Positions 5,662 to 33,479 of a stretch of 35,175 nucleotides of DNA are shown in pieces. The stretch is from a virus (taxonomy: Duplodnaviria > Caudoviricetes). Positions within the stretch are counted from its first letter, which is position 1. Every line of letters starts with the position of its first letter. The position numbers and the translations under genes are program-made. The stretch spans positions 1-35,175 of IMG/VR virus record IMGVR_UViG_3300038312_000113; one strand, written 5' to 3'. The notes below the pieces were generated by a model, which worked only from the letters and a program-made list of their open reading frames with translations, made no database searches and had not been told where the DNA came from.

Positions 5662-6084
5662 CTAAAATCCTGACACATCTTTGATTTTGTAGTTACCAAA
5701 CTCTTCTAAGGTTATCGCTTTAAATTTCCAGGTCCCGTTAGGCTCGAGGTTGTTGGCGTTGGCAAGAGTACTACCAACCTGGGCGCCGGAATCATCATAT
5801 AAGTTGATTTCGACCTGGACATAGGTATATTGTTTGCTTGTATTGTTTTTTACAACACCAACAATGTTCGTACTATAGGTTTCCTTCTGTACGCTATGTT
5901 CCACTACCTCCAGGTCAGGAGCTTTAGCTTTGTCTGATACTGTCGGGGTAGACGCTCCGTCCTTTGTTCCGGCTCCCTGGTCCTTGTTATTGCTACCGGA
6001 TGCTGCCCAGGCGATCAGCACTACGATCGCCAATCCCCAGAACCACCAGCGCTTGTAGATTGGTTTTTTACCTCCTTCACTCAT
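5662..6084 (-). CDS. membrane-anchored FxLYD-domain protein (moron; possible superinfection-exclusion or surface protein)
   Basis: KKPIYKRWWFW TM anchor, low-complexity linker, G.VKN....YVQVEINLYDDSGAQVG...NLEP..TWKF; GGAGGT RBS before ATG 6084. Confidence 0.75.
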   Translation of the reverse strand: MSEGGKKPIYKRWWFWGLAIVVLIAWAASGSNNKDQGAGTKDGASTPTVSDKAKAPDLEVVEHSVQKETYSTNIVGVVKNNTSKQYTYVQVEINLYDDSGAQVGSTLANANNLEPNGTWKFKAITLEEFGNYKIKDVSGF

Positions 6085-6099
6085 AAAAAATACCTCCTT

Positions 6100-6250
6100 T
6101 GACGTAAATACAAGTACAGCAGAGTATATGGAATAAATTCTTAAATTTCGACCTTTTATGACGTAAATAAACGGTATTTGACTGTTGTCTATGCCTGTGT
6201 TTATGACGTAAAATAACGACATAAACATAAATTGACGTAATTAAACGTCA
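6100..6250. promoter_or_regulatory. array of four TGACGT-N6-ACGTCA-like operators in the divergent intergenic region
   Basis: Copies start at 6100, 6159, 6204 and 6233; right arms AAGTAC, ACGGTA, ACGACA and ACGTCA. Confidence 0.7.
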
Positions 6251-6267
6251 TAAAAGAGGTGATTTTC

Positions 6268-6498
6268 GTGGAAATAAAGCTAAATACCTACCCCTGGAAT
6301 CAGCGACTAAAAATGCTGAGAGTGTTAAAAGGTTGGTCTCAGCAAGATGCGGCGGAAGCATGCAATGTAGGGCAAAAGGTGTACTGGAGCTGGGAGATCG
6401 GCAAAAGATACCCTCAAAAAAATAGCAGAATATCGATATCTAAAGCGTTTGGAGTATCGGAAGATGAAATCTTCACGGTCAACAAACAAATTATTTAG
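6268..6498 (+). CDS. XRE/Cro-like HTH transcriptional regulator
   Basis: RLKMLRVLKGWSQQDAAEACNV...WEIGKRYP...ISKAFGVSEDEIF. Confidence 0.85.
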   Translation: MEIKLNTYPWNQRLKMLRVLKGWSQQDAAEACNVGQKVYWSWEIGKRYPQKNSRISISKAFGVSEDEIFTVNKQII

Positions 6499-6514
6499 AG
6501 AGGAGGACAAGCCC

Positions 6515-6745
6515 ATGGCTCGCCACATGCTGGAAGCCCAAGAGGCCGCCGACTATTTGAAAGTTTCATACTGGACCCTTCTTGAAAAGGCAAAGAAAGA
6601 AGTCGTTCCTTGCGTTAGAGTTGGCCGCCGGGTTCTGTTTAGCCAGGAAGGACTGGACGCCTGGATCGCAGATCAAGAGGCCGAGAGTATTGGCCAAAAA
6701 GAAAAACCCGCTCAGTACGGGGTACTAAGAAAAATCAAAGGTTAG
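6515..6745 (+). CDS. excisionase-like HTH (HTH_17) DNA-binding protein
   Basis: L.AQEAADYLKVSYWTL.......VPCVRVGRRVLF....LDAWI; GAGGAGG RBS. Confidence 0.8.
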   Translation: MARHMLEAQEAADYLKVSYWTLLEKAKKEVVPCVRVGRRVLFSQEGLDAWIADQEAESIGQKEKPAQYGVLRKIKG

Positions 6746-6756
6746 GAGGTAAAAAC

Positions 6757-6942
6757 GTGAAAAGTGAGTGGAGAGTGACGAGTAACATTATTGATGGTCA
6801 AAAGATGTATGCAGTCTACCGCCTGATAGACGCGCAGAAAACAGACCACTCCGGCAATCGTGAGTATGCCGGCGGCTATACCCCAAACCGAGAAGCAGCC
6901 CTGGTACTTGCCCAGAACTTGAACAAAGGGGAGGTGAAATAG
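6757..6942 (+). CDS. hypothetical early protein
   Basis: AGGAGGT RBS, GTG start. Confidence 0.6.
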   Translation: MKSEWRVTSNIIDGQKMYAVYRLIDAQKTDHSGNREYAGGYTPNREAALVLAQNLNKGEVK

Positions 6943-6944
6943 GC

Positions 6945-7127
6945 GTGAAGATCGTTACGGAAGATTTAAGAGGTTGTATGGGCAGAAGTGCAGGTACTCC
7001 TGATTTCAGATACTACGTGATTGGAGAACCCATAAACGAAACCGGGATATGCTTTCAGTTCGATTCAAAAGCGGACGCGGAAGCATTTTTAGCCGCAAAT
7101 CTAAAAGAGGGAGGATATGCCACATGA
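6945..7127 (+). CDS. hypothetical early protein
   Basis: GGAGGTG RBS; ATGA coupling to the next gene. Confidence 0.55.
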   Translation: MKIVTEDLRGCMGRSAGTPDFRYYVIGEPINETGICFQFDSKADAEAFLAANLKEGGYAT

Positions 7128-7525
7128 AATGGACCGATGAACAAATAGAGACCCTTAGAAAGCTCTGTTTTGAAGACAAATCCAACGCGGAAATAGCCAT
7201 CACCCTCCAGCGCACCAAATCGGAAATCTATGCGAAACGCTCCCAGTTGGGCATCACCCGGGATAAGGTCAAAGCCGCGAAATCCCAGGATACGCAACAG
7301 AAATATATAGACAACCGGCCGGAGCTAAAGGCCAGGCTCAGAAAAGATTATAACCTTCCAGAGGATCCGGTTGTCGAAGCCATATTGGAAGCGGTTGTAT
7401 CCATGGTGGGCCAAGGCTACATGGAAATGGTGCCAGTGATGGAAAAATACAACGATCTAGTTTGCCGCTGGTGCGGGAGACTACATTACCGGGATGTGTG
7501 CGAGGAGCATTTGAGAGCGAGGTGA
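7124..7525 (+). CDS. HTH (GcrA/Myb-like N-terminus) protein with C-terminal Cys/His cluster
   Basis: MKWTDEQIETLRKL...SNAEIAITLQRT..EIYAK...LG; C-terminal CRWCG..H...VC. Confidence 0.6.
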   Translation: MKWTDEQIETLRKLCFEDKSNAEIAITLQRTKSEIYAKRSQLGITRDKVKAAKSQDTQQKYIDNRPELKARLRKDYNLPEDPVVEAILEAVVSMVGQGYMEMVPVMEKYNDLVCRWCGRLHYRDVCEEHLRAR

Positions 7526-15314: not shown

Positions 15315-15614
15315 ATGAATATGCAGGAAAGCAGTTTAGAAAAAAGACTCAGACTCGAAGTGAAAAAACATGGTGGGCGAGCGTTGAAGTTTGTTTCACC
15401 AGGTAAGCGTGGAGTGCCAGACCGATTAGTCTTAAAACCGGGAGGACGAGCGATATTTGTAGAGATGAAGGCTCCAGGTAAACCTTTAGAGCCATTGCAG
15501 CTAAAACGAGCTAAACAACTTAGAACACTAGGATTTCAAGTTTATAAGATTGATTCCATTGAGGACATAAAGAATTTTATCCAGGAGGAATTCAAACCGG
15601 GAGGTGATGCCTAA
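15315..15614 (+). CDS. VRR-NUC domain nuclease
   Basis: E..LE..L, GVPDRLVL, FVEMKAPG..L.PLQ. Confidence 0.88.
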   Translation: MNMQESSLEKRLRLEVKKHGGRALKFVSPGKRGVPDRLVLKPGGRAIFVEMKAPGKPLEPLQLKRAKQLRTLGFQVYKIDSIEDIKNFIQEEFKPGGDA

Positions 15615-16981
15615 TGAAGTTCAGTCCACACCCTTATCAGGAATACGCAACAAGCAGAATATTGGATCAGGAAGCTGTAGGGTTATTTTTGGATATGGGC
15701 TTAGGTTGAGGTAAGACCGTTTCAACACTGACTGCCGTAGACCAGTTGCTGTATAACTACTTTGACGTGCAAAAGGTTTTAGTAATAGCACCTTTAAGAG
15801 TAGCGCAAAAAACCTGGACCGATGAAGTACGGAAGTGGGATCACTTGAAGCACCTGAGAATCAGTAAGGTCCTAGGAACTGAGAAACAACGCCTGGCAGC
15901 CCTCCAGGCTAAAGCTGATATCTGGGTAATTAACAGGGAAAACGTGGAGTGGTTGGTTGACCTGTACGGGAAGGATTGGCCGTTTGATATGGTGGTCATC
16001 GATGAGCTGTCCAGTTTCAAGTCCAGTAAGGCTAAACGGTTCAGAGCCCTACGCAAGGTGCGGCCGTGTATAAAACGCATTGTGGGCCTAACCGGTACGC
16101 CGGCACCAAACGGATTGATTGATCTCTGGCCACAAGTTTATCTCCTGGACCAGGGCGAGCGCTTGGGTAAAACAGTTACCGGGTACCGGAGCCGGTACTT
16201 TGACCCGGGAAAGCGGAACCGGACTGTAATATTTAGCTGGGACCCAAAACCGGGAGCCGAGGAAGCAATCTACAGCAAGCTGGAGGATTTATGCGTAAGT
16301 ATGTCATCCGAAGACTGGCTGCAGATGCCGGAGAGGATTGATCGAGAGGTTATGGTCCAGATCCCGGAGGCGGCCAGGGCAAAATATGACCAGCTGGAGA
16401 GGAATTTACTTTTGCCTTTTGCCGGCGGCGATATAACGGCAGATACCATGGCGATTTTATCTAACAAATTAATGCAGATGGCCAACGGTGCGGTATATGA
16501 CGAAAATGGATCCACCCGGGAAATCCACCAGGCTAAACTCGAGGCCCTGGATGATATTCTGGAAGCTGCAAACGGCCAGCCGGTGCTGGTGTTTTACAAT
16601 TATCAGCACGACCGAGATAGGATACTGAAGCATATACCTACAGCCCGGGTACTGGACACAGAGGATGACATTGAGAAGTGGAACCAGAGAAAAATACCAG
16701 TTATGTTGGCGCATCCGGCCAGCGCCGGCCATGGCCTGAACCTCCAGGCTGGAGGAAACATAATAGTTTGGTTTGGATTGACCTGGTCCCTAGAGTTGTA
16801 TCTTCAGGCTATTGCCAGGCTATATCGTCAAGGCCAGGATAAAAGCGTAATTGTTCACCATTTAATAGCAGAGGGAACTATTGATGAAGCCGTGATGAAG
16901 GCCTTGGCTGGTAGGTATGTCAGCCAGAAGGCTTTACTGGAGGCAGTGAGGGCCAGGATTGAAAAGTACCAGGCTGCGTAA
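15614..16981 (+). CDS. SNF2-family helicase with an in-frame TGA at 15707-15709 inside Walker A
   Basis: TAATG coupling with GGAGGTG RBS; MKFSPHPYQ...FLDMGLG*GKTV continues in frame into ORF 15746-16981 (IDELS, LTGTP, GHGLNLQ, QAIARLYRQGQ). Confidence 0.85.
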
Positions 16982-21346: not shown

Positions 21347-21542
21347 ATTTGACCGTTCTGTTGAATGGGAAACAGATTTGTGTAAGCTATGTTCTAAAAA
21401 AGATACGTGTCATCACAATATTGAACCATGCCTCCCCCTCGAAATGCTGCGCCAGTTATGTTTGAAAAGTCCGGGAGAACAGGTTGCCGACCTTCGGAAT
21501 GTAGCTGAACACTTTGATTACCCTGGTGGTGATGCCTCGTGA
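21321..21542 (+). CDS. small Cys-rich protein between portal and minor head genes
   Basis: C..C.....C......C pattern; GGAGG upstream; GTGA coupling to the next gene; exact start uncertain. Confidence 0.5.
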   Translation: MAVVAKILKFDRSVEWETDLCKLCSKKDTCHHNIEPCLPLEMLRQLCLKSPGEQVADLRNVAEHFDYPGGDAS

Positions 21543-23311
21543 GCCTGGAAGATAAGTTCAAGCAAGGTGAACAAGCCGCCGAAAAACTGGAGCAGCAGGC
21601 CGAGAAAGAAATCATCAAAGCCTACCGGGAAAGCCTGAAAGAGATCCGGGCAGAGTTGGCCCTGGCATATGAGAAATACGCCATAGCCGGAGCACTTACC
21701 ATGGCCGAAATGATGAAATACGGGCGGTTAGTGAAGTTAGAGGCGGCAATAGCTAAAGAGGTTAGCAAACTAAACGGGACAGGGGCCCGGACTACCAAAA
21801 AGACCATTAAAAAGGTATTCCAGGAAAGCTACTACCGTTCAGCTTGGGCGCTTGAAACCGGGGCCGAGGTATCGCTTAGCTTTACCTTACTGAAACCCCA
21901 GGCAGTGGAGGCAGCAATATTAAACCCTTACGACCTCATAACCTGGCCGGAAAGAATCAAAGATAATGCCAGGCTTTTGGTTAGGCAAATACGGGAGGAA
22001 ATAAGCCGGGGCATTGTCCAGGGTTATTCATACGACAAAACAGCCCGAGCAGTGAAAGAACGACTTGACATCGGGGCCAGTAAGGCTATAAGGATAGTCC
22101 AGACCGAGACCCACCGGGCACAAAGCCAGGGAACCCAAACCGCCTTTGAAGAGGCAGCGGAAAAGGGCCTGGTTTTCAAGAGGGTTTGGATAAGTACATT
22201 AGACGGCAGGACCAGAGACCGACACCGGGCGCTTGACGGCCAGAAGGCAGAAGCTGACCAGCCCTTTAAAATGGACGGCATGACCGCCATGTACCCGGGC
22301 GGGTTCGGTATTGCATCTATGGACATCAATTGTTTCCCTGGTGATATGTGCGTTTATTCCGAATCCCCGATTGAAGGAGCGACAAAACGGTGGTATGAGG
22401 GCGAGCTAATTGAAATTAAAACTACGACTGGTGTAATCGTCGCCGGAACCCCTAATCACCCGATATTGACCGAGCAAGGATGGCTGCCTCTTAATCTCGT
22501 GGCAAAAGGATGCAATGTAGTCTGCTGCGCCATCGCTGAGCCAATTACCGCGAGTAACCCATACCCATACAACAGACCAACCGCATTCGGTAAGGCGTTT
22601 AGTCTTACGGATATTGTTGGCACGGTGTCTAAGCAGAGGGCTCGCGGGGTCAATCCACAGTTCCACGGCGACGGGTTCAACAGCGATGTCGATATTATAT
22701 TTCTCAAAAGCAAGCTGGACAACAGGGTTAAGCCCGCGCTCCCGAAGCATCTCAGCCAAGACCAACTCTCCCTTGCCGAGCTTAGAGAGGGTGACTTGCT
22801 TGGTGACAGCACTTTTGGACATTTCCCTAGCAGTTCTCTTTCTCCCTCTGACGGCACTATGAGCGGCGGCAGCGAGAGCGCTGCGTTCTTCGGGGGGGGT
22901 GTTCGCCATTCTGACAAACATAGCCTCGCTACGATTGCGGCAACTGACGTTATGTTCCTGCAAGATGCGGCGAATAACAGGTCGGCTAACATTGAGGGAT
23001 TGTGCAAGAGCCTTTTCGGAAGTTCCAGCGAGATAAGTTTCGACAACGTAATTGCTGTCAATGTGCGTAAATTTTCTGGTCATGTTTATAACCTCCAAAC
23101 AAGTAATAGCGTATATATTACTAATGCCATTGTACCGCAAAAAGTCCAAAAATTCAAGGGTGCTGTGGCACACAACTGCCGGTGTACGGTCAGGGCAGAA
23201 ATTGAAGGTATGTCCCCTACCCTACGCCGGGCCCGGGATGAAAAAACCGGAAAGAATGTTGTGATATCGAATATCACCTACCAAGAATGGTATAATAATA
23301 CAGTAAAGTAG
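21539..23311 (+). CDS. SPP1 gp7/MuF-like minor head protein containing an intein
   Basis: A.RIVQTETHRA, W.STLDGRTR.RH..LDGQ; the DINCRC motif is split by the intein; spliced product about 308 aa. Confidence 0.9.
   Translation: MSLEDKFKQGEQAAEKLEQQAEKEIIKAYRESLKEIRAELALAYEKYAIAGALTMAEMMKYGRLVKLEAAIAKEVSKLNGTGARTTKKTIKKVFQESYYRSAWALETGAEVSLSFTLLKPQAVEAAILNPYDLITWPERIKDNARLLVRQIREEISRGIVQGYSYDKTARAVKERLDIGASKAIRIVQTETHRAQSQGTQTAFEEAAEKGLVFKRVWISTLDGRTRDRHRALDGQKAEADQPFKMDGMTAMYPGGFGIASMDINCFPGDMCVYSESPIEGATKRWYEGELIEIKTTTGVIVAGTPNHPILTEQGWLPLNLVAKGCNVVCCAIAEPITASNPYPYNRPTAFGKAFSLTDIVGTVSKQRARGVNPQFHGDGFNSDVDIIFLKSKLDNRVKPALPKHLSQDQLSLAELREGDLLGDSTFGHFPSSSLSPSDGTMSGGSESAAFFGGGVRHSDKHSLATIAATDVMFLQDAANNRSANIEGLCKSLFGSSSEISFDNVIAVNVRKFSGHVYNLQTSNSVYITNAIVPQKVQKFKGAVAHNCRCTVRAEIEGMSPTLRRARDEKTGKNVVISNITYQEWYNNTVK
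22406..23083 (-). CDS. antisense-encoded HTH plus Vsr/DUF559-like endonuclease inside the intein
   Basis: GGAGG RBS 8 nt before ATG 23083; HTH SEKALAQSLNVSRPVIRRIL; nuclease-like GELVLAEMLRERGL..Q......IDIA....AVE...K...L...GWSVVWVW. Confidence 0.8.
   Translation of the reverse strand: MTRKFTHIDSNYVVETYLAGTSEKALAQSLNVSRPVIRRILQEHNVSCRNRSEAMFVRMANTPPEERSALAAAAHSAVRGRKRTAREMSKSAVTKQVTLSKLGKGELVLAEMLRERGLNPVVQLAFEKYNIDIAVEPVAVELWIDPASPLLRHRANNIRKTKRLTECGWSVVWVWVTRGNWLSDGAADYIASFCHEIKRQPSLLGQYRVIRGSGDDYTSRSFNFN
23129..23157 (-). promoter_or_regulatory. sigma-A-type antisense promoter for the intein endonuclease
   Basis: Minus strand TTGAAT (23157-23152), 17 nt, TACAAT (23134-23129). Confidence 0.7.
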
Positions 23312-27386: not shown

Positions 27387-28838
27387 TGGCAGAGGTAAAA
27401 TGGTATGGCGATAAGGTAATAAAGAGCATGGAAGATGCCATCAGTAAGGCACTGGAAGCCTCTGCCCTTGTTGTAGAGGGAGCCGCTAAGAACCTAGCCC
27501 CGGTTGATACTGGCAACCTGCGGAACTCTATCACCCACGAGGTGGAAAAGAAAGAGGCCCGGGTGGGCACCAATGTGGAATATGCGGTAGACGTATGCCG
27601 CCCTCAATGGCGACATTGAGGTAAAAATCGGGCAATATCGGTGGAACCTAAACCTTTTAGGAACAAATGTTATAAACATATATAGAGTGTGGTACAATAT
27701 CAATGGGAGGTGTACCACATGAGAGAAGATTTAACAGGCCGTAAGTATGGAAGGTTAACTGTTGTCGAATTAGACAAAACCCGAAGTAAGCGTAAAAGTT
27801 ATTGGGTATGCCAGTGTGAATGTGGTAATACAAAAACAGTGCGAAGTGATAGCATTAAAGCCGGGGCTATTCAATCCTGCGGATGCTTGAAGGATGAACA
27901 AGACCGCATTAATTTAACTAAACACCATTCCCATAAGATGAGCAAAACAAGGCTATACCATACTTGGCAAGGAATAAAGAAACGTTGTAATAGCCTAGAT
28001 GATGCCAGTTATCCAAGATATGGCGGCAGGGGCATAACTGTTTGTAAAGAATGGGAGTCTAGTTTTGAAAGCTTTATGGAATGGGCTCTTAATAACGGTT
28101 ATTCAGATACCCTAACTATTGACCGGATAGACAACAACGGCAACTATGAACCTTCTAATTGTAGGTGGACAGGGCCTAAAGCACAAGCTAGAAATAGACG
28201 TAGTAATATCAAGGTTAGATACAACGGTAAATCTATAACCTTAATGGAACTGTCCGAAATTACAGGGCTAAATTACGGTATTTTAAGCGCGAGATATGAC
28301 CGAGGAGACAGGGGGAAAAGATTGTTGCGAGCTCCGGGAAAAGATAGGGACACCCAGATAGGAACAAAAAACTGCAACAATAAGATTGATGAAGCCACGG
28401 CAAGTGAAATTAAGGAGCGCCTCAGTAAAGGAGAAGTGGCAACCATTATTGCCCGTGACCTTGGGATATCGAAGTATATAGTTTATGACATTAAGCGAGG
28501 CAGAACATGGAATTGGCTCTAAATGGCATGGCAATACCGAGATAATTCAAGGAGTTAAAGGACCTTGAACATCGTAACGCATAGGCGGTGATCCTGCATT
28601 GCAGAATATAATCCGCCCACGAGTGCCCGACAACCCATGAGGTTGAAAATGTATGCTGACCTCATAGGAAACTATGAGAAGTAAGGGATAAAAAGCCCTT
28701 ACGGTAACAAAATGATACGTCGAACTCGGAACCGTCAAAATGGCCGCCCAGCCCTATCTTAACCCGGCCCTGGAGAAAAATAAGGGCAACATCAAAAAGA
28801 TCTTCGCCGATGCCCTGAAGGAGGCGGGGAAAGATTGA
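27383..28838 (+). CDS. HK97 gp10-like tail component split by a group I intron; exons 27383-27588 and 28715-28838 (109 aa)
   Basis: Joined exons read AKNLAPVDTGNLRNSI...VGTNVEYAVYVELGTVKMAAQPYLNPAL, the family motif. Confidence 0.88.
27688..27719 (+). promoter_or_regulatory. intron-internal extended -10 promoter overlapped by a hairpin enclosing the RBS
   Basis: TGTG-G-TACAAT 27688-27698; inverted repeat TGTGGTACA 27688-27696 / TGTACCACA 27711-27719 around GGGAGG. Confidence 0.65.
27719..28522 (+). CDS. intron-encoded HNH-type homing endonuclease with C-terminal HTH domains
   Basis: DLTG.KYGRLTV, W.C.C.CG, SCGC, YGGRGI.VC.EW, TIDRIDNNGNYEPSNCRW; C-terminal IARDLGISKYIVYDIKRGRTW. Confidence 0.88.
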   Translation: MREDLTGRKYGRLTVVELDKTRSKRKSYWVCQCECGNTKTVRSDSIKAGAIQSCGCLKDEQDRINLTKHHSHKMSKTRLYHTWQGIKKRCNSLDDASYPRYGGRGITVCKEWESSFESFMEWALNNGYSDTLTIDRIDNNGNYEPSNCRWTGPKAQARNRRSNIKVRYNGKSITLMELSEITGLNYGILSARYDRGDRGKRLLRAPGKDRDTQIGTKNCNNKIDEATASEIKERLSKGEVATIIARDLGISKYIVYDIKRGRTWNWL

Positions 28839-30113: not shown

Positions 30114-30449
30114 ATGATGGCTAATGTAAAAGATTTTGATGCCTTCTGGGCAGAGCAAAATCAGGAGAATATCCCTTTCAAAATATTTGGACAGACTGAG
30201 TACCTGCCCCCTTCCCTGCCGGCTTTAATGGTTTTGAAGATAATAAAGATGCAGAAGGAATACGGGAAAAAGGATATACCCGAATCTGAGCTGTTTGGCC
30301 TGGCTACCTCGATCTTCGGCGTGGGTAAGCTGGATGAATGGTGCAGCAAAGGCCTTACTGTTGACCAATTGACTGACTTAATTAGTTGGGCTATGGAACA
30401 ATATAACCCGGGAAACCCACAAGCCCCGGAGGTAAAGGGGCAAGCATAG
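30114..30449 (+). CDS. tail assembly chaperone (gpG-like)
   Basis: Between major tail and tape measure genes; contains in-frame G GGA AAC. Confidence 0.8.
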   Translation: MMANVKDFDAFWAEQNQENIPFKIFGQTEYLPPSLPALMVLKIIKMQKEYGKKDIPESELFGLATSIFGVGKLDEWCSKGLTVDQLTDLISWAMEQYNPGNPQAPEVKGQA

Positions 30450-30670
30450 ATATACTCGAAAATTGGGCCTACATTGAGGCCGACTTCCAAAGAGAATACG
30501 GAATGAACCTGATGGAATCGCTTCCAGGCATGAACTGGAGGCGGTTTTCTGTTTTGTTGAAAAGTTTGGGGCCTAATTCCGCTTTTGTGTTGGTGAACAG
30601 CGGCGAGAGTAAAGAAAAGACCCCCGCATCGGGTAAGAAGCAAGCTATAAAAGCACTGGCAGGGTGGTGA
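30410..30670 (+). CDS. -1 frameshift extension of the tail chaperone (gpGT-like, Gp15-like domain)
   Basis: Slippery GGGAAAC 30410-30416; -1 frame open to TGA 30668-30670 (WAYIEADFQREYGMNL...MNWRRF..LL..L). Confidence 0.85.
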   Translation, partial: GKPTSPGGKGASIDILENWAYIEADFQREYGMNLMESLPGMNWRRFSVLLKSLGPNSAFVLVNSGESKEKTPASGKKQAIKALAGW

Positions 30671-30674
30671 GATT

Positions 30675-33479
30675 ATGCAAGTTGGAGAACTTTGGGTAAA
30701 GATCGGTGGCAGGAACGATGACCTCAAGGCATCTATGTCCCAAGCTGAGAAAGCAGCAAAAGATGCTGCGGGCAGGCTGGAGAAGTCCAGCCAGGCATTG
30801 TTAAAAACAGTCACAGTCGCAGCTACGGCCGCCGCCGCCGCAATAACGGCTATCGGAGTGAAGTCAATTGAGGCTGCTGCCAATTCCCGCGCTATCGAAG
30901 CCCAATTCGAGCAGGTATTTGGCAACGTCCAACAAACCGCTCAAGATGCGGTAGAAGAATTGGGGAACACATTTGGGATGTTGCCCAATAGACTGAAAGG
31001 CCCGTTTACAACTACGACCTCCATGTTTAAAGGCCTGGGATACGATACTCAAGAAGCTATGAAGATGGCAGAGCAAGGGGTTACAATAGCCGCAGATGCC
31101 GCTGCGTTTTATGACAAAAGCTATGAGGATGCCAACGCGGCTCTAAACAGCTTTATAAAAGGCAACTATGAAGGCGGTGAAGCTATAGGGCTTTTTGGCA
31201 ATGAGACCCAGATAGCCGCCTACGCTTCAGATAAGTTGGGTATTAGCTGGAAGGATGCGGGTGAGGCTCAGAAGCAGTTAGCGCGGCTGGAATATGCCAA
31301 GGCAATGCAGGAAGCCGCAGGGGCTACAGGACAAGCGGCTAGAGAATCAGAGGGATACCAGAACCAACTAGGTAACCTTAAGCAGGGCTGGACTGATTTC
31401 TTGGCTGTTATAGGGACACCTTTGCTAGAACCTGTCGTTAATGCGCTCAAAGGTCTGACCGAGCATCTGTCCACACTCAGAGACTTGGTGACCGATGAAG
31501 GCTTGGCCGGAGCTATAGAGAAGATAATTCCGGATTGGCTGGAGGGCGCTATCTTCGCTGTCGCCGGAGCTATCACTGTCGCCATAATTCCAGCTCTTAT
31601 AGGCATGGCGACGGCAGCCTGGGCGGCGGTTGCACCATTGTTACCATTTCTCGCCGCCGGAGCTGCTATCGGGGCACTGGCCTACCTGATTATTAAAAAC
31701 TGGGGACCTATCAAAGGCTTTTTCCTTAACCTATGGACCGGCGTTGTTGATAAATGGAATGGATTCAAGAACTCAGTAATGGAAATATTTGCGGGCATCA
31801 AAGCATCGGTACTCGAGGTTGTAAACGGTGCAATCCAATGGGGCCGGGATTTAGTACAGGGTTTTATAAACGGAATTCAAGAAAAGCTGGCAGCTGTGCA
31901 GCAAGTAGCCAGTAACCTGGCCAATAGTATCAAAGAAAGAATAAATAATCCTTTTGATTTCGGATCCCCATCCAAAGTCATGAAACAGTTTGGCAAATGG
32001 GTAGCAGAGGGTTTGACGGTAGGTATGGAAGAAGGTACTGATAAGGCGGCCGAAGCGGCTCAGAAGCTATCCCAGGCCATAACCGATGCTGTGCAGACAA
32101 TGAATCTTAGCCTGACAAACACCCTAGATCTGACCGTAGCAAGGCTCGATCTGGAAGCCATGAAGCTATCTGATAACGCCACCGAGACCGAAAAGCTCAA
32201 TATCGAGTTAAAGAAACTCAACGCTGAAAAGGATGCTCAAATAGAAAAGATTGAGGTTATTACAGCGGCCTATGAGATGGCTAAAGAGAAACTGGGCGAG
32301 AATAATGAGACCACCCGCCAATATGCTCAAGAATTACAGCTGGCCCAGGTAGAGCTGGAAAAGACGGAAGTATCCATCAAGAAGATGAGCGTAGCAATTG
32401 ATAAGTCCGTGGAAGCCCAGGTTACTGCGCTCAATAGTCTAGCTGACGAAATTACGGCTGTAGAAGAAAAGTACCGGGATGACCTGGCGTCAGCTATGGA
32501 GGACTATCAAGAGAAGGTTCAGCGGGTCAATGAAAAGCTTATCCAGGATGAACAAAACGTCACCCAGCAGTACGAGAATGCTTTGGCGTCCAGGGCCGAC
32601 GCTCTCAGCAATTTTGTTGGCCTATTTGACCAGGTAAGTAACAAGAATGTGTCGGGGGCCTCTCTCTTGGCCAACCTGCAGGGACAAGTAGACAGCTTCG
32701 AGGGCTGGTCAGCAAATATAGCAACCCTGGCCGCCCGAGGTGTGGACGAAGGCCTGATCGAAGAACTCAGGCAGATGGGGCCTAAAGCTGGCCCTGAGAT
32801 AGCAGCTCTTAATACCTTGACGGATGAACAATTACAGCAGTATGTCGCCCTTTGGAAAGAAAAGAACCAAATGGCCAGACAAGAAGCATCTAACCAACTA
32901 GAGCAGCAGAGGGTTGAGATGGAGCAAAAACTTGAAGAGATCCGGGCCAATGCTTCTGAACAACTTGAACAGTACCGTCTCGAATGGGCAGAAAAGAATG
33001 CAGAAATTAAGAAGAATACTGACGAAGAGCTAACAAAGATACAGAACAAGTTCAAGGAATTAGCCAAGAACTCCACCAGATACGGCAAGGAATTTGTCAT
33101 GGGTTTTGTTACCGGCATGGAATCTAAATTTGATGATTTGCGAAAAGCTGTTGCAGAAATGGCGGCTATTGTTGATGGAGGGGTAACTGACCCTCTTGAA
33201 ATCGAGTCTCCTTCAAAACTGATGGCCTCTTACGGCAGATTTGTAATAGAGGGCTTTATGAATGGCATTAAGTCCAGTCTACCCAGACTTGAAAATGTCG
33301 TAGCAGGAATGGCAATGGTTACCCCGGCGACGCTTGGGCCTTCTATAAGTAACAGTACATCGTCCAGTTATTCCCCTTCCCTTATTATGCAGCCTGGGGC
33401 GATTCAAATTAACAGCAGTAACCCCCGTGAGGTTGAGGATGTCATTATGAGGGCATTGCATAAGGCTGGTATACGATAA
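30675..33479 (+). CDS. tape measure protein
   Basis: 934 aa, Ala-rich helical, hydrophobic central region, two SPSK motifs. Confidence 0.9.
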   Translation: MQVGELWVKIGGRNDDLKASMSQAEKAAKDAAGRLEKSSQALLKTVTVAATAAAAAITAIGVKSIEAAANSRAIEAQFEQVFGNVQQTAQDAVEELGNTFGMLPNRLKGPFTTTTSMFKGLGYDTQEAMKMAEQGVTIAADAAAFYDKSYEDANAALNSFIKGNYEGGEAIGLFGNETQIAAYASDKLGISWKDAGEAQKQLARLEYAKAMQEAAGATGQAARESEGYQNQLGNLKQGWTDFLAVIGTPLLEPVVNALKGLTEHLSTLRDLVTDEGLAGAIEKIIPDWLEGAIFAVAGAITVAIIPALIGMATAAWAAVAPLLPFLAAGAAIGALAYLIIKNWGPIKGFFLNLWTGVVDKWNGFKNSVMEIFAGIKASVLEVVNGAIQWGRDLVQGFINGIQEKLAAVQQVASNLANSIKERINNPFDFGSPSKVMKQFGKWVAEGLTVGMEEGTDKAAEAAQKLSQAITDAVQTMNLSLTNTLDLTVARLDLEAMKLSDNATETEKLNIELKKLNAEKDAQIEKIEVITAAYEMAKEKLGENNETTRQYAQELQLAQVELEKTEVSIKKMSVAIDKSVEAQVTALNSLADEITAVEEKYRDDLASAMEDYQEKVQRVNEKLIQDEQNVTQQYENALASRADALSNFVGLFDQVSNKNVSGASLLANLQGQVDSFEGWSANIATLAARGVDEGLIEELRQMGPKAGPEIAALNTLTDEQLQQYVALWKEKNQMARQEASNQLEQQRVEMEQKLEEIRANASEQLEQYRLEWAEKNAEIKKNTDEELTKIQNKFKELAKNSTRYGKEFVMGFVTGMESKFDDLRKAVAEMAAIVDGGVTDPLEIESPSKLMASYGRFVIEGFMNGIKSSLPRLENVVAGMAMVTPATLGPSISNSTSSSYSPSLIMQPGAIQINSSNPREVEDVIMRALHKAGIR

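Follow-up and report, generated by a model that had tools for sequence, protein, structure and literature searches.

How can a phage make an SNF2-type helicase from a gene whose ATP-binding loop is split by a stop codon? The window analysed here, a virus record of 35,175 bases with a 99-nt terminal repeat, raises this question on its + strand, where helicase motif I reads GAT ATG GGC TTA GGT TGA GGT AAG ACC (DMGLG*GKT; 15692-15718). A preliminary description had placed GGT-TGA-GGT inside the Walker A motif of a frame starting at ATG 15614, and this is borne out: the three triplets lie at 15704-15712, the start codon is preceded by a Shine-Dalgarno-like GGAGGTG (15600-15606) and overlaps, as TAATG, the TAA of a VRR-NUC nuclease gene (15315-15614; PF08774), and after the TGA the helicase frame stays open to TAA at 16979-16981. 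The overlap suggests that the two genes are translationally coupled. By translation, the first part of the gene (15614-15706) supplies 31 codons, MKFSPHPYQ...FLDMGLG, and the second (15713-16981) runs from the P-loop lysine (KT...) through motifs II-VI to the TAA. The product is SNF2-like (PHROG62, PF00176/PF00271), with motifs I-VI and a DxGLGKT P-loop only if the gap is skipped; a relative, P0002, aligns with the Snf2/Rad54-family chain 1z63 through DMGLGKT, and a GenBank phage search lists helicase homologues. In line with the claim that no restart with a ribosome-binding site follows, the first start codon 3′ of the gap is TTG 15746, without an SD-like run upstream.

The source phage is circular, about 35 kb long and of temperate type. 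Profile matches outline a siphophage-like head-tail module and, for replication, an exonuclease-SSB-PolA-VapE-VRR-NUC-SNF2 module; a second helicase copy in the phage was considered and rejected, tblastn giving one match only. TGA terminates 8 of the 32 listed genes, which indicates the standard code, and neither a phage tRNA gene nor a known non-coding RNA (Rfam) was found in the phage. Elsewhere in the window, a minor head/Mu-F-like protein of 590 aa (21539-23311) seems by eye to bear an intein (…INCFPGD…AHNCRC…), a free-standing HNH endonuclease gene (27689-28522) sits within the head-tail connector cluster (PHROG374) about 11 kb from the helicase site, and in the region 30114-30675 about 225 nt separate a tail assembly chaperone gene from the tape measure gene that follows, so that the usual G/G-T frameshift might extend the chaperone (an AAACCC run lies near 30414). 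Repressor-like and excisionase-like genes lie within 6000-7500; an integrase was not found among the 47 ORFs scanned.

Support for the six extra bases extends beyond the record. Contig X1 matches in full at a depth of 185 and may be the source itself; X2, from another sample of the same study, covers 430 nt (15358-15787) with 0 differences; and X3, X4, X8 and X18, about 85-95% identical, carry the site without an indel, among the matches listed. This support consists of assembled contigs, and five other runs span the site. Sequencing error is ruled out by the independent contigs together with hundreds of homologues.

Inserts at this junction recur widely, so that the gap is not unique to this genome. 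The pattern DMGLG-TRR-GKT was found in 100 IMG/VR stretches, all with TGA or TAA and none with TGG, and DMGLG-stop-GKT in 54 GTDB loci, mostly titled Bacillota, two of them with TAG; all three stops thus occur at the site, alternative stops being among the tests first proposed for it. Named isolates behind the GTDB loci include Succiniclasticum ruminis DSM 9236, Heliorestis acidaminivorans DSM 24790 and Faecalibacterium intestinale CLA-AA-H281. The same pattern with a sense codon not starting with T gave one match, which was not a helicase, and the recurrence of the stop-bearing form is far above chance. Of 120 loci from a search that allowed a spacer, 33 were helicases and carried 1-6 extra bases; when only the upstream sequence and the stop were prescribed, helicases made up 114 of 120 loci, and their inserts measured 4 nt (21), 5 nt (24), 6 nt (45), 7 nt (12), 8 nt (2), 9 nt (6) and 10 nt (4). 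When any 1-12 nt were allowed between Gly and Lys, 89 of 120 loci were helicases (82 with stop-led inserts, 7 without), and a search for inserts starting with C or G yielded 11 helicases among 15 loci, all C-led and all out of frame. Inserts of 12 nt also occur in the helicase set, and one of 16 nt (L690), in a GC-rich phage-like gene, was the single insert from one metagenome scan for gaps of 13-42 nt with a strict pattern. Overall, lengths span 4-16 nt, mostly 4-10, in all three reading frames; none of 2 or 3 nt was seen across the insert searches. One copy (L673) has just one additional T behind GGG at this junction; it conflicts with a 4-nt minimum and may reflect either an error in sequencing or a site of +1 slippage. 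Clustering 279 full-length loci, which were chosen by DNA pattern and give no frequency, at 90% identity left 192 clusters, 115 of them represented by a gene with an insert between the same Gly and Lys codons, among which are many independent carriers.

For a frequency, whole genomes were searched with the intact relative P0002, so that no pattern was imposed. Inserts were present in 14 of 102 fetched copies from three genome groups (5/20, 5/45 and 4/37; three centre genomes and one unfetched match left out, 5 of the 102 copies without an N-terminus), 12 at this junction and two at the neighbouring Gly. A fourth group gave 15 inserts among 104 matches, of which 50 were fetched, 20 of those picked as interrupted-looking. 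By rough estimates for the collection, made with a different pattern for each state, intact stretches number about 5,200 (on the basis of 2 of 64 parts), compared with about 390 insert stretches that have the GAT prefix (530 x 89/120). Roughly 7-14% of related helicase genes, or about one in ten of those from Bacillota phages, thus carry a candidate site. Three of the 29 genome-sample inserts (L748, L776 and L834; stop-led, 6, 8 and 5 nt) lie after the first rather than the second Gly of motif I, which suggests independent origins; they end in GGN and lack the GGC-YUNG signature described below. Several genomes of the G005 class (L840-L845, L571) share a non-stop 5-nt insert, TCGGC, apparently from TAGGC, with the downstream frame open. 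In three further copies (L849, L852, L853) motif I is intact and the alignments break at about residues 88-196, which suggests other insertions or frameshifts.

Genes with inserts are under the same constraint as genes without. Downstream of the site, 180 of 186 insert genes keep an open frame of at least 390 codons, as do 89 of 93 intact genes. On disjoint pairs (Nei-Gojobori), dN/dS was 0.118 over the 29 upstream codons and 0.074 over the 400 downstream codons for 62 insert pairs, 0.117 and 0.090 for 21 intact pairs, and 0.140 and 0.074 for 16 pairs with out-of-frame inserts of 4-5 nt. Both halves of insert genes are under purifying selection, as intact genes are, and the downstream selection called for in the preliminary description is present (0.074). 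The slight difference in dN that would bear on a nascent-peptide stimulator (insert genes, 0.040 upstream vs 0.047 downstream; intact genes, 0.075 vs 0.061) is lineage-confounded. The closest intact relatives, P0002 and P0004 (93% and 92% identical), are 453 aa long with DMGLGKT at the position of the gap, where read-through would give a length of 455, and no DMGLG-x-GKT protein occurs among 120 homologues. Several homologues are truncated predictions without motif I (P0018, P0019, P0025, P0027-29). The gap is a real, widespread and selected feature.

Translational bypass by peptidyl-tRNA-Gly(GCC) is the best reading of these comparisons, with a probability that we put at about three in four. 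Since purifying selection acts on genes with inserts in all frames, ribosomes likely hop from Gly codon to Gly codon, and with lengths that span 4-16 nt and every frame, neither readthrough nor one fixed frameshift suffices; on the sequence evidence, all insert classes would be explained only by a process that regains the register of the Lys codon regardless of gap length. At this locus, the inferred take-off codon is GGT (Gly31; 15704-15706), the in-frame TGA (15707-15709) would occupy the A site at take-off, and landing would be on GGT (15710-15712). After unpairing from GGU, the peptidyl-tRNA would slide over UGA to the following GGU and pair again there, which would yield the same 453-aa DMGLGKT enzyme as in intact relatives. 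Take-off would be triggered by slow termination or, in some out-of-frame copies, by a slow sense codon. Such a GGU-to-GGU hop had been proposed at the outset, and it gains comparative support from the exact 453-aa length of the intact relatives.

The codons at both ends of the gap are consistent with this tRNA. Of 107 insert clusters, 105 have GGT or GGC as the take-off codon, compared with 37 of 62 intact clusters (26/26 vs 57/98 in the genome sample), which points to tRNA-Gly(GCC); on independent tree pairs, the enrichment is not significant (median p 0.125). At the other end, the last triplet of the insert can form at least two of three pairs with anticodon GCC in 48 of 49 insert types of at least 4 nt (19.1 expected), these types being taken from searches without a GGN requirement. 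Landing triplets are GGN or, where base 1 or 2 is lost, GAY, AGY or CGC. Of 49 sequences with a mismatch at base 1 or 2, 48 have Y as base 3, a wobble compensation that is not significant by types (p 0.26). One landing type, TGAGA, keeps a single pair, and many landings are mismatched (GGA, GAC, AGC). The in-register triplet is the best or tied best in 131 of 131 genes (unique best in 92, tied in 39). We caution that the nominal P for landing (1e-22) overstates independence because insert types share descent, and that the similarity could in part be a relic of tandem duplication (TTAGGT TGAGGT in the window). The preliminary description had stressed a match between the codons used for take-off and for landing; the window has one, but across the family identity is not required and two of three pairs suffice. 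The first codon of the insert is a stop in 44 of 44 in-frame inserts and a sense codon in 19 of 116 out-of-frame inserts (p 0.002; by types, 0.047), a difference to be expected if a change to sense gives a long inactive protein in frame, whereas translation of out-of-frame inserts still ends a few codons on.

Constraint beyond the protein level lies 5′ of the stop. Synonymous divergence over codons -5 to -1 is 0.11 in insert genes vs 0.41 in intact genes, and over codons +1 to +5 it is normal (0.32 vs 0.28), with no drop 3′ of the gap. The signature is GGC-(TTG/TTA/CTC)-GGY, here GGC-TTAG-GTT (15698-15707): the first Gly codon is GGC in 98 of 107 insert vs 14 of 62 intact clusters (24/26 vs 19/98 genes in the genome sample), and the Leu codon is TTG, TTA or CTC in 104 of 107 vs 26 of 62. 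On 13 independent tree pairs, median p was 0.004 for GGC and 0.039 for the Leu codons; about 8% of inserts lack GGC. A 3-bp hairpin, G-G-C-[Y-U-N-G]-G-Y-Y, here with a C-G-closed UUAG tetraloop, may form at this signal, although from the folding models we consider it somewhat doubtful. Of 117 clusters, 111, 115 and 117 would allow its respective pairs, and the ViennaRNA special-tetraloop list includes CUUAGG and CCUCGG, two of the three common loops, but not CUUGGG. Insert genes give it a mean pair probability of 0.22 (0.13 for the window), compared with 0.01 in intact genes, but its energy is marginal (+0.2 kcal/mol in the window; +1.3 to -3.3 kcal/mol in common forms), and the commonest variant (TTG/GGT) is the weakest. 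The hairpin would sit over the take-off codon, block re-pairing at 0 and +1 and force a move of at least 4 nt, which would account for the lower bound of the 4-16 nt class and the absence of 2- and 3-nt inserts. Its use of the last two take-off bases and the first base of the insert would explain why T or C nearly always stands at the latter, and why common inserts begin at 4 nt, enough for one paired base and a triplet to land on. Its partners are fixed by coding, which leaves no room for compensatory change. A different hairpin, centred on the take-off codon and pairing the Leu codon with the stop, was dropped because the best-pairing combinations, CTA or CTG with TAG, are nearly absent. The stem first suggested for the window, GTTGA with TCAAC, fared no better: just 8 of 131 insert genes retain all five pairs, folding is no better than in shuffles (z 0.06 and -0.44), and the normal synonymous divergence 3′ of the gap argues that the stem is not a conserved element. 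A strong bypass stimulator was not found.

Four other explanations were weighed against bypass. Each single insert class could be solved by a recoding event of its own, with stop readthrough at inserts of 6 or 9 nt and +1 or -1 frameshifts at the others adding 1-3 residues to the P-loop; GGT-TGA-C resembles the +1 site of RF2, and a +1 slip there keeps two of three pairs. However, this would place three mechanisms at one site, interconverting often, for a tree of 190 downstream proteins (FastTree) implies at least 41 changes of insert frame among 116 insert tips; a helicase with sense-encoded DMGLG-x-GKT is absent from the viral contigs searched as from the 120 homologues; and TGA is a normal stop in this phage, with TAA and TAG versions of the site in others. 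We thus regard frame-specific recoding as very improbable. Reassignment of TGA, or selenocysteine, is ruled out by the normal TGA stops and the TAA and TAG variants; most inserts are out of frame, and three different stops lead them. Alternatively, the 31-aa peptide and a re-initiated C-terminal protein (the 411-aa form of gene callers) might be made separately, as the truncated database predictions and the SD-like runs that many inserts form (TAAGGA, GAGGT) would allow. Starts within the first five codons from Lys are nonetheless in no excess (34/131 insert vs 19/77 intact genes), and the break would fall within the P-loop, separating G from K, even though K-T is conserved with free synonymous change, so that split expression is extremely unlikely.

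It is just as hard to accept as frame-specific recoding that the alleles are inactive or reverting, the helicase being dispensable or slipped-strand deletion restoring the DNA in some progeny. Many carriers are prophages, and the two states alternate on the tree (at least 33 insert/intact changes vs a shuffled mean of 59). Among close insert/intact pairs, L572/L504 have a divergent patch around the N-terminus and L615/L451 have identical flanks, the latter like a precise loss or gain; the site thus appears to have been both carried by recombination and precisely lost or gained. Against this explanation stand the dN/dS values, which match those of intact genes, the lack of excess downstream lesions, a 90% cluster of 31 members, all insert-bearing, in which TAA and TGA are interchanged, the presence of an intact member in only 2 of 115 insert clusters, and the absence of the deleted form from the X1 contigs, from which assembly would drop rare variants. 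Removal at the RNA level, by a trans-acting ribozyme, a nuclease and ligase, or an RNA-polymerase jump between imperfect repeats, would fit the roughly 12 nt of constraint 5′ of the gap, which resemble an exon-binding sequence, with an exon ending in U or C; we judge it improbable. Group I introns end in G and group II introns start with GUGYG, whereas these inserts are 4-16 nt long with a variable last base in place of the terminal G that group I chemistry needs. The 11 helicases from the search for C- or G-led inserts hold no G-starting long intron, and no long element (intron, intein or IS) lies at the junction in those 11 or in the 114 helicase loci. Also against removal, the phage has no tRNA or Rfam match, the landing rule is tRNA-shaped, and X18, an RNA-labelled contig of a relative that may be DNA, keeps the six bases.

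Translational bypass has precedents, of which the terminase of phage Hau3 is the closest known case. Its sequence has a 10-nt gap between KGWG and Lys, preceded by a GGT-TGGG-GCT run, and the G-x-G-K motif is presumably a P-loop. The features found here, namely matched GGT/GGT in the window, a stop in the A site at take-off in 82 of the 89 helicases from the search open to any gap, and resumption irrespective of frame with both ORFs selected, suggest that the helicase site behaves like short programmed bypassing. It does not belong to the T4 gene 60 cassette family, whose take-off stem-loop and downstream barrier structure 3′ of the take-off codon, and whose adjacent homing endonuclease, find no counterpart at the helicase sites. 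The phiHau3 report (PMC10732093) describes, for Streptomyces phages, inserts of 7-10 nt, led by UUA, in 3 of 100 terminase genes, with mass-spectrometric evidence of bypass in E. coli from a UAA-substituted construct. The two systems share a short gap after Gly and before the Lys of G-x-G-K, Gly-to-Gly landing and proposed stimulators 5′ of the gap, where the GGT-TGGG-GCT run is analogous to the helicase run; unlike the terminase, with its rare UUA trigger, the helicases are mostly stop-triggered, comprise hundreds of Bacillota phage SNF2 genes and have gaps from 4 nt upwards, including in-frame 6-nt hops.

T4 gene 60, with its 50-nt bypass, and its MobA-cassette homologues, as described in two preprints (10.1101/2022.08.31.505936; 10.1101/2024.12.09.627546), resemble the helicases in a Gly take-off codon followed by a stop, matched re-pairing and a few copies with sense in place of the stop. 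They differ in that the helicase gap is about 5-10 times shorter, landing mismatches go beyond wobble (GGY to GGA, GAC or AGC), and no conserved stem-loop lies 3′ of take-off. Nor was a homing endonuclease or other gene enriched within 2 kb of 117 insert vs 77 intact loci (HNH motif, 1 vs 1), in a comparison by ORF clustering and crude motifs. The later preprint (10.1101/2024.12.09.627546) describes stop-hops that are unstimulated as low-level. According to a 2016 review (PMC5009743), synthetic stop-hops in E. coli, in which 9 nt specify one amino acid, are artificial and low-level but have the very GGU-UGA-GGU geometry of the window, and natural in-frame stop-hops were unknown. The mitochondrial byps of Magnusiomyces, in the same source, are likewise many short inserts with relaxed two-out-of-three pairing, but they involve mitochondrial ribosomes, unused codons and mobile elements, unlike the bacterial ribosomes, single fixed site and single gene family considered here. 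Searches of the open-access literature, which mostly excludes subscription journals, turned up no report of a Gly-hop helicase family.

The insert is likely a tolerated module, spread by recombination, that would lower helicase output or else, in the manner of the T4 gene 60 gap, shield a nuclease-prone P-loop sequence. P-loops are described as hot spots for inteins (PMC4760082) and the T4 gap as protecting against MobA nicking (10.1101/2022.08.31.505936), which makes protection combined with recombination plausible; dosage control or sensing of host termination stands on an equal footing. A more far-reaching view is that Bacillota support an efficient minimal bypass, consisting of a Gly codon, a 5′ tetraloop hairpin and two-of-three re-pairing by tRNA-Gly(GCC), and that hundreds of phage and prophage lineages gain and lose a 4-16 nt P-loop module as a switch tying replication to host termination or tRNA status. 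We think this unlikely as a whole, but if true, no natural family of bypass sites in bacteria would be larger, and an in-frame stop-hop would be known from nature for the first time, set against bacterial bypassing that, in the literature consulted, comprises T4 gene 60 with its homologues and three Streptomyces terminase genes. With candidate sites in about 7-14% of copies of a very common phage replication gene, this would be an unusually common natural short bypass, and its roughly 50 natural variants would offer a ready mutational series for the minimum bypass length, the looseness of P-site re-pairing and the drive for forward sliding. Many helicases now predicted as truncated proteins without motif I are probably full-length enzymes.

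One group of predicted proteins departs from this pattern. A clade at 77-82% identity (P0055, P0057, P0058, P0064, P0065, P0077 and P0082) is predicted to read ...LTWVFGKT..., which at the protein level back-reads as DMGL, one extra base and GKT, a possible separate case, at this motif too, of +1 recoding.
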